Made by a program: the position numbers and the translations under genes
NCBI GenBank assembly: GCA_031763465.1
Contig: JARFOE010000013.1
Coordinates: 8,577,708 to 8,611,615 of the forward strand
DNA length: 33,908 bases
Direction: 5' to 3'
From: Squatina squatina
Taxonomy: Eukaryota
Part shown: positions 1,580-28,488 of the stretch, piece after piece
Layout of the letters: every line of letters begins with the position of its first letter
Numbering within the stretch: position 1 is the first letter of the stretch
The notes under the pieces: generated by a model
Seen by the model: only the letters and a program-made list of their open reading frames with translations
Databases searched by the model: none
Told to the model about the DNA's origin: nothing

Positions 1580-1756
1580 NNNNNNNNNNNNNNNNNNNNN
1601 NNNNNNNNNNNNNNNNNNNNNNNNNNNNNNNNNNNNNNNNNNNNNNNNNNNNNNNNNNNNNNNNNNNNNNNNNNNNNNNATTTTGAACACAGTTCTTTTG
1701 CCATAAATCTTCATGTTGGGCACAATTCTACACCGCGGTTGCTGTAGATGATTCTG

Positions 1757-2053
1757 CCATCTCCACCCTATCTGGACTCATCTTTTGTTATTTAACTTGT
1801 TCCATTACCATCTCCTTTTGCCTTGCACTATCATCCCTTTTGCCTCTTAAACTCTTCTGCCTTCCATCCTATCACAGATTTTCTCTTTGTTCTTTTCTCC
1901 CCTTCCCCCACCCCTACACTTGCTTTAAAAACCTGTTACATCTCTTAACTTTTTCCAGTTCTGATGAAGGGTCATTGACCTGAAATGTTAACTGTTTCTC
2001 TCTCCAGGTGCTCCCCACCTGACCTGTTGAGTTTTTCCAGCATTTTCTGTTTT
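1757..2053 (+). mobile_element. Penelope-like element terminal (pLTR) fragment containing a hammerhead motif
   Basis: Pyrimidine-rich tract, then CTGATGAAGGGTCATTGACCTGAAATGTTAAC...CCTGACCTGTTGAGTTTTTCCAGCATTTTCTGTTTT. A homologous inverted copy lies at 28220-28488. Confidence 0.75.
1956..1994 (+). ncRNA. Minimal type I hammerhead ribozyme motif
   Basis: Stem I cagtt (1956-60) / aactg (1990-94); core CTGATGA (1961-67); stem II ag(g)gtc-att-gacct; GAAA (1982-85); ATGT stem III; GUU cleavage triplet. Confidence 0.7.
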
Positions 2054-2953
2054 TAACCCCGTTTGTACTGCCCGACTAAAAATTCAAGCCTGCTGCTCAG
2101 GAAAAACCACTGCAAACACTGAGCTCTTCGTGCAGCAAATGACGTGTTTGGGGTGCAAAGTTGGCACAATGATAACAAATTTAGCAGTGGGACGGCCCGC
2201 ACCCGATCAATGCATGCGTTTGGGCCACTGCTAAATTCATCGGGTCCATTTTTTTTTAATAAGAAGTGTTCCGGGCATCCGCCTAAAACAGGCTTGAAGC
2301 CCCTTACATATGGTAATGAGGGGCCTAACACCTGTTCCAGGTCCTTTGTGGGATGAGTGGAGCAGATGCTGGGCCTGTTCGCTCAGGATTCTTCAGCAGC
2401 TGTTGCATCCTAAGTCTGTTTTCAGTAGAGAAAAGAAAATGAAGAGATATGATGCCAGAAAGAACAGAGGGAACTTTCTTCTGCATGTGTCGATGCTACC
2501 AGGGTGTCTGTGAATGGGAGCTGTCCGGAGTGAAGAGTCCAGCATTGACATTCCTCGCTATGGTGAGCAAAAATATTCATCAGAAAATAGAAACTTAAAA
2601 AAGCTTAATTCTATCCTATGATCCTTCCACATAGGTGAGAAAATAACTTGCCCAGTATATCCCAGGAATAAAATGGCCTGCTTAAAATCGATATATCGGT
2701 CATGGCAGGCCTACTTGAGGCCAGCTAAAGCAATGACGTGTGTGCCTTCCAAATTTGGAAGGCACACACATCATTGCTTTAGCTGATCTTCTAGTATCAG
2801 GTGATCTCCTTGGAATGTTTCCGTTCATCTTGCACCAATTAAACTATGAAATACCAAGATTAATTTTCAACTTACTGCTGGAGTATAAAACTGGCGTTTC
2901 AGATTGGGCATCCGTAATGGAAAGCACCCGATTGAAATCAATGGAAAGGAACA

Positions 2954-3042: not shown

Positions 3043-4488
3043 AATTTAAATGGAATTGCATGTGTTAACAAAGATCTTGTACTCATTTCTGACCTAAAAT
3101 CCCAGCCATGAAATACCATCCATTAAAGGTAATTCATCAGAATTGATCCCTGCCTGATTTCTTAGCCCTTACATGCCCATTCCACACTTACATGAACATT
3201 TTTACTGACCAGAATATCTGTACCATTACATGTGCAGAGTTTTGAGACATTGCTGAGAGACCGGGTAAGGACCTAAATAATAAAAGTNNNNNNNNNNNNN
3301 NNNNNNNNNNNNNNNNNNNNNNNNNNNNNNNNNNNNNNNNNNNNNNNNNNNNNNNNNNNNNNNNNNNNNNNNNNNNNNNNNNNNNNNTATGTAAACAGGA
3401 GACTATGGGCTCAGTATCTCCTAAACTGGTTGATTTCCTGTAAAGTAGTATTCAGAAGTATGAAAATGTGAAATCACACTGTAAATTAACTCATGCCATA
3501 ACACTTGCTAAACAAGTATTCGATTTATTAAGCTAGTGGATCATCTAGGAGAAAAATTTTTCACTTCCGTGATAGTAATCTGCCTGAAAGGCAAACATTC
3601 AAAGCTAGGAAGTTGTATTTAAAAGACATTACAGAAGTCTAAAAATTTAAATCAAACCGAGGTACATTTACTTAGGACAGTTTCATCAACGGTCGTATCA
3701 AACATCTAGCATCTTCTCCGTAGACAAATGCACTTTTCTGAAACCTATGTAATACATAGTACAAGAAAAAAAATGAACATTGCATTCAACTGGTTGCACA
3801 TACATTTTTAAAAATTATATTTCAAAACCAGGAATAATTTGGGTAAAGAATCTTGCATAACTTCTGGTTTGTTTCACATTTGGCAAAATGTTAATTCAAT
3901 TTATTTGCTTTATTTACTACAATAGTTTCCATTATATTGGATTTATTAGTTTGAACTAAAAATTACATGATATCCAAATTGTCTCTGCGGAGCAAAATTA
4001 ACTTAAAAATAAATCCTACAGCACAAAAAAAGTAGGTTGAAGAGCTAAGCATCGCAAAATCTCAGATCAGTGACCAAACTACACTTGTTAATTGTTAGTA
4101 TTAAACAAATCCAAAAAAGGTTATTAATTGGTTTCTCACATTCACTCAATTTCTGTATTCCAACTAAGAGGTTGAGCTTAGAAAGACAGCAGTTACTGAT
4201 AAAAGCTTTAGGAAGGCAGAAAGTGCTTGACAAAGTTATAGCGCTCAAATGTGGTTTGTGAGATAAGAGTATAAGGGCAAATGCAGCAATGAGAACCAAC
4301 ACGGAAAGCCAATCTCGTGTTCGAGTGTTCAAAAGAGGTTGCCTTGAGCAATAAAGTTCCAATAACCATGGTTCCTTGAAGATACTAGNNNNNNNNNNNN
4401 NNNNNNNNNNNNNNNNNNNNNNNNNNNNNNNNNNNNNNNNNNNNNNNNNNNNNNNNNNNNNNNNNNNNNNNNNNNNNNNNNNNNNNNN

Positions 4489-4975: not shown

Positions 4976-6536
4976 ACCATCATATATAAAATTATATTCA
5001 TAAAATGACAACAAATCACAACTGAACAAGGAATCAAAACCAACAATCATCAATTTCAAAAAGCTGCACTGTACCTCTTCATTGGTGAACCTGTAACGTT
5101 TAAAACAACTCTCATTCCACTTAAATAATTTAATCCACTTCCGCTGGAATTTTAAAAATTAAGTTATAGTTCAATTCAATGACCATAGACACAGTGATTT
5201 CCCAATGGATACAGAGAATGTCTTCATTTGCCTGAGCTATAGATTGTCTCCACGGGGAACCGATGCAGAGGCCTATTAATATCTCTGTAGATCAATTGCA
5301 TTGGTTTCTTTCTTTGGAGGGCTTTCATAATTCAGCCCAGTTTCCCACAAAACGATGCTCCACATCAGATCCTACCTGTGAGCAATGGCACAAGGAGAAC
5401 ACTAAATATAAAAATGTTGCTCCTAGCATACATTGTCCCTCGCACTTGGAGTGTCACACCTTTGAATATGCAAATTTCTGTATCATGCTTACATTGAATA
5501 GTAACAAATCACAACTGAAAAGGATACCAGCTGGATGCCGGCAAAGCATGCACATAAACTTCTGATGAGAAACTACTAAGGATAAATGAAAACAATTGGT
5601 CTAGAATGAGTAGTCACCAAAAGCTATCATTATAAAAAGGGAGGCAAACCAATAAAAATATTCAAAATGTTCTGAAATTCTTTTCAGCCATCATCTCTGT
5701 TTCTCCATTACTGGAAATAAGATTTGTTACATAAGAAAATGTTTAATAAGTTCAAAATGTAAAAATTGATTCCATTTACTTGTGCAATAGAATTTTTGGT
5801 GTTCAAAATGCTTCCAAATATATTTTCTGCCATCTGTTTGAGAAGCTTGATTTCATGGAGCTCCCTGCAGCTTCACTTTCAACTGAACAGATTCAACAAA
5901 GTAACAGCGCAAAGCTGCCAGGTTGTATTTGTGCCTAAAGCTCCCAGATTTTTTTAAATGATTGCCGGCACGACAGGCCATTCAAAAAGATTGCCACAAC
6001 TTGCTGTTCATGAGCCTCCCACCTCTTGAAGTTGCTGTTTCTCTCTGGTGCAACAATGTAAAATTACCAGTGGTAACACTCTCCAACTACCCCCCTTCCT
6101 NNNNNNNNNNNNNNNNNNNNNNNNNNNNNNNNNNNNNNNNNNNNNNNNNNNNNNNNNNNNNNNNNNNNNNNNNNNNNNNNNNNNNNNNNNNNNNNNNNNN
6201 TACAGCTAAGTGTACCAGTGTTGATTTTGAAATGTGCAAATTATATACATCAATTTATCTAAATGTACCAGTTTAATTCACAAGGTAAACACCATTACCT
6301 GAATCCTTAAATGTTCTGAAGGTCACAGGCCTGTAGAGGAGAATCAGCAGTACCCTGAATAGTTTCTTGTGCACTACAGATTTCTAATACACACTCAAAT
6401 GCATATATTAGGCAAGTGTGTATAAATTATGGGATTGTGTGTACAAAATATCAGAAATCTAAAGAATTTTAAACACCAGTACTGCACAGCATAGCTGCAG
6501 ACTAAATATCAGTCTCAACAGTTATTTTATACTTGC

Positions 6537-6879
6537 CCTACGTATGGCTTCCTCCTCCTCTTGACGCTTTTCATAATGTGCAAAGTCATCAAAGATTGAA
6601 GTGGTATGCTTGTAAGTAGCAATTATTTTAAGCACTTGCTTGGCTTTTTCCAGGGGCACCTCCTGTGTGTCCCTTGAGTTGGTAACTGGTTTGTTATCAT
6701 TGTTTTCCAATCGAATATGCCGTAGCTGATTATTGGGTACATCTTTCACAAAGATCCACTTCACTTCAAACTTGCCCTTCCACTTATCCTGTGACCACAC
6801 TCCAGCATAAGCATTATAGTCCACTGCTGACTTCATCTCAGCCACTCCACAAAAATGTCCACTTCCATTTACACTGAAG
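6537..6879 (-). CDS. YTHDF3: YTHDF3 large exon, 3' part encoding the C-terminal YTH (m6A reader) domain; 5' part lost in the gap at 6880-6979
   Basis: Translation [114 protein letters not shown] is nearly identical to human YTHDF3. Ends AGG|gcaagt. Exon 3 and the canonical last exon (ERNRNKQ*) were not found. Confidence 0.97.
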
Positions 6880-7715
6880 NNNNNNNNNNNNNNNNNNNNN
6901 NNNNNNNNNNNNNNNNNNNNNNNNNNNNNNNNNNNNNNNNNNNNNNNNNNNNNNNNNNNNNNNNNNNNNNNNNNNNNNNCCTCTCTTCCCCTGTTCCAAT
7001 CTCCAAACCACATCCCAGTCCTCCCACCCCGTCCCCAGTCTCAATCTCACTTTCACACCTCATCAACCCCCTCCCCTCCCCCTCTGTATTTTAGTGGTCT
7101 CTGAGAAAAAGATGTTTTTGAAGCATGCATCAGACCAAATTGCCTCATTTTTAGGATGTCAGTTTGGTAGAAATATGGTGAGGGTGGTGGGAAGAAGATA
7201 TGGGAGACTGGGTTGCATTTTATGTCAGAACACAAATGTGTAGGATTATGAAGTGGTGGGATGCACAGTTAATGCTCTGCTTTGTTCCCGAACTTAAATT
7301 TGTTGATCTCCGGAGGTGCTTAGTTAGAGAAATACAGTGTCATATGCAGGGTGCGCACAACATTACCAACAGCAAGAAACAGATTGTACTCCTTCAACCC
7401 TACTGCCCTGAATCACCACCATCTAAGCTTAAGCTGTTAGTGCCTAGCCTCTCGAAATTATGGAAGAAAACAGAGGAAGTTTTCTTTCAAGTAAGAATAA
7501 TGATTAAAAGTACCAAACTGAATAGTTTTTTTTAACAATTAATCATGCGGATGAATTTGAGAAGCAGTCAAGCGGACTGTGGAATTTATAACCTGTAAAG
7601 TTCAGTAAAAAGCACCAACCCCTTTCCCATCCTTGAAATTGTTGATAAATTAAGGCAGTATGCACTGGAATCTTATCAACTGCCATACATCTCAGGAATA
7701 CCTATTTTCCCATGG

Positions 7716-8715: not shown

Positions 8716-8740
8716 CTTTACTTCCCTGTCCTTTCGGTCT
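8716..8740 (-). CDS. YTHDF3: YTHDF3 coding exon 2 (RPKGQGSK, 25 nt)
   Basis: catcag|AGACCGAAAGGACAGGGAAGTAAAG|gtgagt. Matches human RPKGQGNK with canonical splice sites. Confidence 0.93.
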
Positions 8741-8999: not shown

Positions 9000-9023
9000 C
9001 TGATCCACGCTGGTAGCAGACAT
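9000..9023 (-). CDS. YTHDF3: YTHDF3 coding exon 1 (MSATSVDQ)
   Basis: Minus strand reads ATG TCT GCT ACC AGC GTG GAT CAG|gtaata. MSATSVDQ matches the YTHDF3 N-terminus (YTHDF1 has MSATSVDTQ). A GT donor follows at 8999. Confidence 0.95.
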
Positions 9024-24020: not shown

Positions 24021-24380
24021 TAACAAAAACCACTTGCATTTATATAGCACCTTTAATGTAGTAAAACATTGCAGGAACGTTGTCAAACCAAATTTGACAC
24101 GGAGCCACGTAAGGGCATATTGGAATAAACAAAGTAGGTTTTAAGGAGCTTCTTAAAGGAGGATGGAGAGGTAGAGAGGCGGGGAGGTTTAGGGCGGGAC
24201 TTCCAGAGCTTAGGGCCTAGGTAACTGAAGGCGTGGCCAACAATGGTGGAGTGATGAAAAGCAGGGGTGTGCAACAGGCCAGAATTGGAGGAGCACAGAG
24301 ATCTAAGAAGGTTGTAGGGCTGTAGGAGGTTACAGAGATAGGGTGGGGCAAAGCCATGGAGGGATTTGAAAACAAGCGTG
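24021..24380 (-). mobile_element. L2 LINE 3' end
   Basis: IVGHAFSYLGPKLWKSRPKPPRLSTSPSSFKKLLKTYF resembles L2 GGRAFS...PKLWNSLP..LR...S...FK..LKT.LF. Followed by the gctatataaatgcaagt tail. Confidence 0.88.
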
Positions 24381-26791: not shown

Positions 26792-28219
26792 NNNNNNNNN
26801 NNNNNNNNNNNNNNNNNNNNNNNNNNNNNNNNNNNNNNNNNNNNNNNNNNNNNNNNNNNNNNNNNNNNNNNNNNNNNNNNNNNNNNNNNNNCACCCAAGA
26901 ACCAAACTGAAGCCCGTTTGGCTTCAATTATACCCCAATTATTAGCCAAACCACTTCAGAGAAGCAAAATATATCGTATACCTGGTCTGTAAGAAACACA
27001 GGAATAGAAACAATCTCACATTATAGCACACAAAATGGAATATCTGGAACAGTGCTTTAAAACAACAACTTGCATTGATATAGCACTTAAATAAGTGGAA
27101 TCTGTCTCTCAAAACTTAGGGTACAACACACACTTTAAAAACATATTACTCTCCGATCACTTAGTTTTTCTTGAAGTTTGAGAAGAACCCACAGCTAATT
27201 TTCAGATTCTAGATTGTCATGACTACTATTTTTTGATCACCATAAAGCACTGTTTTGTCTTATTATTTATAATTTTTCACTATATTATTGTATAAAATGA
27301 TTGCAACTCTACTGGAAGAGCTCAACCACCATCATACCCACTTACATTTAAATTTCAAAAGCTATTTTTAAAAACATCCTGTTTATGATCATCATGATGC
27401 TTAATTTTCCATTTGATAATTAGATTACATTGTAGCCTGAACAAAAGAACACACAGAATCTTGTTTTAAGGTGAAAATTGAAAATTACTTTAAAACATCA
27501 TTTTGAATTGCTAACTGAGTTTGAAGTACTAAGAAGGCCTTGCTCTGTAAAAAGCACAGCTGCAAAACAAAGCAAACAGCCACTGACATGACCAGAGCCC
27601 TAATTACAAATTCCGGTGGGTGGCTGAGCAGCTGGGATGCCTGTTTATCTGTAATGAATAAAGGGTTGGTTATCACTAATTTCTAACATCTCAACAGCAC
27701 AATTAAAACCAGCCATCCCTACCCAGGTCCACCTGTGTCCATGAAATAACTCCTCAGTGTCCTCTGCACACAGGCAGCATGCTGGCCAGATATTTCCATT
27801 GCCTAGCAAAAAGTCTGCCTTTTATAAGTATGGTTTTACTAAACTGGTCTCCAAGGGCCCTTAAGTATTATGATTAAATCCATAGCTTATAAAGCATAGG
27901 AGCCAGCTTGCACAGTATTCACCAGCAAAAAACAGAGAACTAATCCATCATATTGCAAAATAGGATGTGTGACAGGGTTTTCGATCCATTCACCCATCTG
28001 AATAAAACCTTCAGCTAACACAAGTATTGAGCCAATGGAAGCAGATCCTTGGTGTGCAGGATAGTTGAGAGTGTCCCATTTTGCTGAAAATATTGAGTGA
28101 TGCAGGGCAAAGAGCTGGTCCCATTATCCAATCAATAAAACCGTGTGAAGAAACAATGTAGTGATTTTTAGTTTCAAATCACTGCATTTCAAAGTGAAAA
28201 CCTGGGAAATATTTTTAGA

Positions 28220-28488
28220 TACAAAAGCTAAATACTGCAGATGCTGGAATCTAGAATATAAACAAAAATTGCTGTAAAAACTCAGCAGGTCAGGCAGCAT
28301 CTGTGGAGAGAAAAACAAGAGTCAATTTTTTGGGTAAATAACCCTTCGTCAGAACTGAATAAAGCCAGTAATGCAGCAGGTTCTCAAGCACCTGCAGGGG
28401 CAGGGAAAGCAGGGAGGGGAGGAAAGAACAAAGGGAAAGATCAGTGATTGGGTGGAAGGCAGAAGAGATTAAGAGATGATGCAAGGCA
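28220..28488 (-). mobile_element. Penelope-like element terminal fragment with decayed hammerhead
   Basis: Reverse-complement homolog of 1757-2053. Reads cagttCTGACGAagggttatttacccaaaaaattgac, with the GAAA box lost. Confidence 0.75.

Follow-up and report, generated by a model that had tools for sequence, protein, structure and literature searches.

A minimal type I hammerhead motif in an abundant Penelope-like element beside YTHDF3 of Squatina squatina, and the 5' ends of its copies

The motif at positions 1956-1994 of the window (the whole stretch of DNA analyzed, 33,908 nucleotides from Squatina squatina) is very probably a minimal type I hammerhead carried by the pseudo-LTR (pLTR) of an abundant Penelope-like element (PLE), in a copy that is a relic, 5'-truncated and CpG-decayed, and probably unable to cut. 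Taken alone, this worn representative of a known class of ribozymes, which lies next to YTHDF3 in antisense orientation, is of little consequence. The pattern of 5' ends among its relatives bears on an open question, the role of hammerheads in PLEs, and offers a precise, testable start site.

The hammerhead motif and its element family

The core of a minimal type I hammerhead (CUGANGA, GAAA and an NUH triplet) was present at 1956-1994. The letters and coordinates of the original prediction (CTGATGA at 1961-1967, GAAA at 1982-1985 and the GUU triplet at 1987-1989) all matched the sequence, and the cut site that it placed after GUU, at 1989/1990, agreed with the sequence as well. The core pattern alone was observed three times in the window, against 0.84 expected by chance. 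The descriptor that combined the core with stems I and II gave one match in the window and none in 1000 shuffles, which preserved non-overlapping dinucleotides only. An Rfam search of the window returned no hammerhead family at E <= 10, and the monomer fold of the motif was not unusually stable (z 0.59); both results are expected because the motif is without helix III. These two results are what could be said for a chance match. However, that reading is refuted by the shuffles, by the 1,126 exact matches of the 32-mer motif in the genome (850 with U11.1, the T-form, and 276 with C11.1, the C-form, against 0 in reversed controls) and by the full pLTR-ORF-pLTR unit described below; the position of the motif is, moreover, fixed within the PLE pLTR, and we regard coincidence as practically out of the question.

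The stems differed from their first description. Stem I had been called a perfect 5-bp helix, but its fifth pair, C1956-G1994, is a by-product of the loss of two nucleotides. The column that faces C1956 holds C in 27 of the 29 closest relatives, and helix I has 4 bp in the family and 5 bp in this copy through the deletion, which fits the range of 4-5 bp for this class. Stem II had been drawn with A-U pairing and a bulged G, a fold of -0.3 kcal/mol, and an alternative with A1968 unpaired and five pairs closed by G.U was preferred (-4.4 kcal/mol). A1968 is the extra base between positions 9 and 10.1 by which minimal PLE hammerheads are recognized. The coordinates of the features are collected in Table 1.

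Table 1. Features of the window, in window coordinates
Feature	Position	Strand	Remark
5'-truncated 3' pseudo-LTR fragment of PLE, bears motif	1733..2056	+	shorter of the family's two 3' ends
TATA-like A/T run, putative upstream promoter	1925..1931	+	about 31 nt upstream of A1957
Initiator-like site, alternatively 3' splice site (CTAAC, pyrimidines, CAG); family 5'-end hotspot	1954..1960	+	
Stem I 5' strand (AGUU)	1957..1960	+	C1956 paired in this copy only
Core box C3-A9 (CUGAUGA) and extra unpaired A	1961..1968	+	T1965 = decayed CpG, free position 7
Stem II, 5 bp, 3-nt loop, closing pair G10.1.U11.1	1969..1981	+	U-form fixed in subfamily, replaces G-C
G12-A13-A14, helix III half (AUGU; family ACGU palindrome) and GUU triplet	1982..1989	+	predicted cut after 1989
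Stem I 3' strand (AACU)	1990..1994	+	G1994 supplied by 2-nt deletion
Probable YTHDF3 3' UTR with AATAAA at 3529	3450..4388	-	single-copy, 67% AT
YTHDF3 YTH-domain exon (part), ends at GC donor	6537..6878	-	closest to YTHDF3
Second family copy, other subfamily with tail extension, upstream of YTHDF3	28219..28475	-	core broken, G12 lost

The assignment of the repeat to the PLEs was borne out by longer copies, which carry a reverse transcriptase (RT), a CxxC linker and GIY-YIG. The fragment in the window aligned over about 300 nt with many genomic copies at 81-85% identity (40 scored of 7,097 first-look candidates). The claim that the repeat family is abundant also held, with thousands of genomic matches; the tail 31-mer of the family had 6,623 exact matches in the genome, and its reversed control had 0. 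Longer copies ran upstream into a GIY-YIG ORF (150 scored of 13,351 candidates). One of these, L134, had the RT motifs, a CX4CX2C linker, a GIY-YIG domain and a pLTR with the motif, and was flanked by a 15-nt target duplication. Another, L176 (G000:C149:3023500-3031000, minus strand), was a full unit, though decayed, of about 3.2 kb with a pLTR bearing the motif at its 5' end, the ORF and a shortened second pLTR. RT plus a C-terminal GIY-YIG with CCHH were found in a single ORF in both L134 and L176 and were absent from the truncated copy in the window.

The RT motifs of the longer copies were DKG and YIDD, with tblastn similarity to a second PLE. In Pfam, GIY-YIG was matched at E 1.4e-4 and 22.5 bits (cut-off 22.6) and RVT_1 weakly at E 0.21, both below the cut-off, and a PDB search with the RT piece of the element found nothing. 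A linker motif of the CKRRRCNTC type lay between RT and EN in many copies. By this CX2-5CxxC linker the element would be of the Neptune type, an assignment from one motif, which also occurs in Nematis. The 3' ends of the family fell at two points about 33 nt apart, inverted 5' pieces were frequent, and target duplications were about 15 nt.

Several further observations were made on these loci. The L134 copy sits inside a LINE-like element, and its target duplication is AT-rich. In L176, a frame of about 40 codons starts with an ATG about 20 nt past the cut site, and ahead of the conserved N-terminal frame lies a pyrimidine-rich CAG that hints at an intron near the start of the ORF. The subfamily with G at position 1.1 (L182-L281) often adjoins assembly gaps, which suggests that it is the youngest. 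The Pfam GIY-YIG search of the genome led to two loci (L035 and L036) of a second, distinct GIY-YIG PLE family; as relatives of the motif-bearing pLTR they were rejected, being unrelated to it and with no core motif found in either locus.

The upkeep of the motif was surveyed in 100 copies picked by the tail 31-mer, 29 of which span the motif gap-free; both core boxes were kept in 22 of the 29, and core, stems and palindrome together in 7. Non-CpG change in the 29 relatives amounted to 45/891 (5.1%) in the motif versus 448/8020 (5.6%) in the flanks (P = 0.59). Inserted copies decay neutrally, and there is no selection on the motif among the relatives. Stem variation between subfamilies was a one-sided A/G change at position 1.1 (U-A or U.G), and a search for variants in this one genome gave 10 matches without compensation. 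The suggestion that so abundant a family could seed many ribozymes thus keeps its first half, abundance, whereas the seeding is weakened by the neutral decay, by the count of 7 intact motifs in 29 and by the published finding that single motifs were not cleaved.

Decay of the copy and its place beside YTHDF3

Compared with the 29 closest relatives, the motif of the copy in the window differed at three CpG sites (1965, 1976 and 1986) and had lost 2 nt just after 1993; all three of the CpGs in its motif have decayed. The proposal that ATGT arose from ACGT by CpG decay was supported by the relatives, in which C occupies position 1986 in 13 cases and T in 12, and A occupies position 1987 in 4. The calculated energy of a 4-bp dimer helix III was +2.6 kcal/mol for the AUGU of this copy versus -1.7 kcal/mol for the ACGU of the family, and the palindrome 15.2-16.2, broken here, keeps its CG in 19 of the 22 core-intact relatives. 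U11.1 is found in this copy and in 28 of the 29 relatives (T at 1981), so that the conserved G10.1-C11.1 pair is absent; the C-form occurs in sister subfamilies. T1981 was considered as a CpG decay private to this copy and rejected, because T is fixed in the subfamily. The G.U at 10.1-11.1 throughout the subfamily suggests that the element spread well despite a weakened ribozyme.

The 144 kb surrounding the locus, of which 91 kb is gap-free, contained four family copies, and the three besides this one were all on the opposite strand. No target-site duplication was found for the 1733-2056 copy, the longest word common to its flanks being 5 nt. "Near-intact", the term first applied to the motif, does not hold in a functional sense: the helix III palindrome is broken, U replaces the conserved C11.1, and no same-strand partner lies nearby. 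A lone AUGU copy has neither partner nor palindrome, and this one is likely inactive and very probably a 5'-truncated, CpG-decayed relic.

These same defects weigh against the view that this copy is a working or domesticated ribozyme that affects YTHDF3 expression by cutting an antisense transcript at the gene's 3' end. That view can draw on the intact core boxes and triplet, on the fifth stem I pair of this copy, on the retention of TATA/Inr-like elements and on the absence of non-CpG changes from the motif (0/29 positions versus 19/274 in the flanks). However, about two such changes were expected, so that their absence is not significant and lies within chance, and the copy had been chosen for its intact look. 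In addition, the motif is not on the RNA strand of YTHDF3, and with a broken palindrome, a G.U at 10.1-11.1, a monomer without helix III and no same-strand partner among the four copies in 144 kb, a working ribozyme at this locus is very unlikely.

The neighboring gene had been named correctly as YTHDF3, on the minus strand with the motif (plus strand) antisense to it; the best PDB match of the exon had E 1e-73, and YTHDF1 had 2e-70. The placement of the motif inside a YTHDF3 intron is unproven, since no terminal coding exon was found in the gap-free sequence of the window or of 90 kb beyond. Peptide-pattern scans for the last YTHDF3 exon in the window and 90 kb beyond (39% N) did not find it in the gap-free part. 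Three assembly gaps lie between the YTHDF3 exon and the element, and in the paralogue on C162 the last exon comprises seven codons and lies about 12 kb past the donor. The stretch from 4388 to about 3450 (minus strand) is one that we take to resemble the mammalian YTHDF3 3' UTR; if it is this UTR, the gap at 4389-4488 would contain the last coding exon, and the element would lie about 1.5 kb beyond the AATAAA. On the basis of this resemblance, the intronic placement is probably wrong. The comparison of 3450-4388 with the UTR of the YTHDF1 paralogue was not significant; one scoring was borderline (11/200 shuffles, 4/97 real controls) and HOXD70 was null (39/97). A metagenome pattern search for the putative 3' UTR gave 0 matches, 80 metagenome YTH loci gave no UTR match, and a literature search with motifs of the window led to one unrelated hit.

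The donor of the YTHDF3 YTH exon at 6535-6536 (minus strand) is GC (AGG/GCAAGT), where the paralogue has GT at the same place, and read-through of this GC donor would add four codons before a stop. Exon 3 and most of exon 4 of YTHDF3 appear to fall in the gap at 6880-6979, and 8716-8740 and 9000-9023 (minus strand) are presumably coding exons 1 and 2. Other repeats in the window include a tRNA-related SINE-like repeat at 1383-1560 (tRNA match of 24.7 bits at 1500-1543), with related heads at 24022 and 27058, and a 32-bp near-perfect palindrome without spacer at 2722-2785, inside what is apparently another repeat.

Where copies of the element begin

The 5' ends of the family were counted in the 100 copies picked by the tail 31-mer, from which 52 that adjoin assembly gaps and 8 that are inverted were dropped, leaving 40 informative copies. 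The 5' end lay at -5 to +2 of C3, the first bases of stem I, in 17 of the 40, versus 1.4 expected (P about 2e-13). At the cut site (+26 to +29) there were 3 ends among the 40 versus 1.0 expected, an excess that is not significant (P = 0.09). With 17 ends at stem I and only 3 at the cut site, the templates were mostly uncut RNA. When the 17 tail-picked copies were joined by 15 from exact motif matches, the upstream flanks of the 32 boundary copies shared nothing, and duplications of 14-15 nt were found at the boundary in 4 of the 32, against a maximum of 11 among 992 mismatched pairs. These are therefore true insertion ends, copied through the uncut motif.

A TATA-like box at -30 to -33 read TTAAAA or TTTAAA in 57 of 70 pattern matches and the imperfect TTGAAA or TTCAAA in the other 13, the loci not being de-duplicated. 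The boundary at 1954-1960 is taken by us to resemble both an initiator and a 3' splice consensus. Given the TATA-like run and the initiator-like boundary, a transcription start is the simplest reading of the pile-up. Accordingly phrased, the RNA of this Neptune-type element would start at the first base of stem I under an upstream TATA/Inr-like promoter in the pLTR, and the thousands of promoterless mini-elements of 100-135 nt would be run-off copies of the uncut 5' end, a proposal to which we give an even chance of being right.

The boundary could also be a 3' splice site, in which case an intron would extend up to stem I, as it does in Drosophila virilis Penelope, and the short copies would be products of spliced or intron-processed RNA. 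Directly ahead of TT-CTGA stand CTAAC, a pyrimidine run and CAG, and the D. virilis intron reaches as far as the 5' end of helix I, according to PMC4209133 (see also PMC2377424). However, the 32 boundary copies have no common upstream sequence and so carry no exon 1, several of them have 14-15-nt target duplications adjoining the boundary, and the branch-like CTAAC is missing from some subfamilies; splicing is an unlikely source of the pile-up. We have an equally low expectation that it reflects arrest of the reverse transcriptase or fold-back of the cDNA at stem I, in which case it would be uninformative on the RNA start. Inverted junctions at or in the motif fit such an event (8 of 48 informative copies were inverted, and L096 joins at AGTT), but a stop at a structure would be expected on its 3' side, where there was no excess (7 ends in +3 to +25).

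For an active element, published work on PLEs suggests that helix III would form when two motifs in one tandem transcript pair by way of the ACGU palindrome, that the cut after GUU would probably be aided by the element's protein, and that the reverse transcriptase would begin 60-95 nt downstream of the motif. From the present data we would add that the first base of stem I is the likely start of the element RNA, under control of the TATA/Inr-like pLTR promoter, and that most insertions were probably copied from uncut RNA. The 1733-2056 copy would derive from a longer template, its synthesis having stopped about 230 nt upstream of the motif. If transcription does start at stem I, the genome records both the RNA start and a ribozyme that was mostly silent on the templates that inserted, and the start site explains why tandem copies alone can be active. 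Ends that cluster sharply at stem I, and show no clear excess at the cut site, are in line with in vitro work in which uncut RNA serves as the template. Literature searches on PLE hammerheads and promoters yielded no report of a 5'-end hotspot and none specific to this family; repeat databases may well hold the family.

Relation to known hammerheads and elements

Minimal hammerheads in PLEs are already published, and this element adds another case. In the survey by Cervera and De la Pena (2014; PMC4209133), single minimal PLE motifs showed no cleavage and dimers cleaved weakly, and the G10.1-C11.1 pair is called highly conserved in minimal hammerheads. The family described here has in common with those metazoan motifs the type I core, a helix I of 4-5 bp, the extra nucleotide between 9 and 10.1, the palindromic 15.2-16.2 (in the family), the lack of loop 3, the position in the pLTR and the occurrence mostly as single dispersed copies, and its stem II with an unpaired extra A fits the published consensus. 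It differs in helix II, which has 5 bp here versus 7-8 in the Schistosoma motifs, and in the G10.1.U11.1 of the subfamily versus the conserved G-C. No shark is named in those parts and supplement files of that survey that were searched.

One chondrichthyan genome is reported to contain non-LTR retrozymes (Li et al., 2026; bioRxiv 10.64898/2026.07.22.740005), which are likewise derived from pLTRs and carry a type I hammerhead. Retrozymes consist of units arrayed in tandem, each with its own motif, whereas the copy here is alone, with four dispersed copies in 144 kb, and does not qualify as one. The CX2-5CxxC linker is a mark of Neptune and Nematis that Penelope and Poseidon lack (Craig et al., 2021; PMC8557442). 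With these EN+ PLEs the family has in common the C-terminal GIY-YIG with CCHH, the linker, pLTRs, the tail and inverted 5' pieces. As a difference from them, we saw no microsatellite targeting in the loci viewed here.

A further comparison is with PAc, a Poseidon element of Anolis carolinensis (Frangieh et al., 2024; PMC11167929). According to the accessible sections of that paper, its motif cleaves only with the element's protein and cleavage is dispensable for insertion; uncut RNA is the main template, and reverse transcription starts internally at two sites that define the tail. The CX4CX2C linker of the present family is missing from Penelope and Poseidon, and the hotspot of 5' ends at stem I is not described for PAc in those sections. 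Both elements have the hammerhead at the junction of pLTR and ORF and two 3' ends separated by a tail of 30-40 nt, and the genomic record here is consistent with an uncut RNA template, as in PAc.
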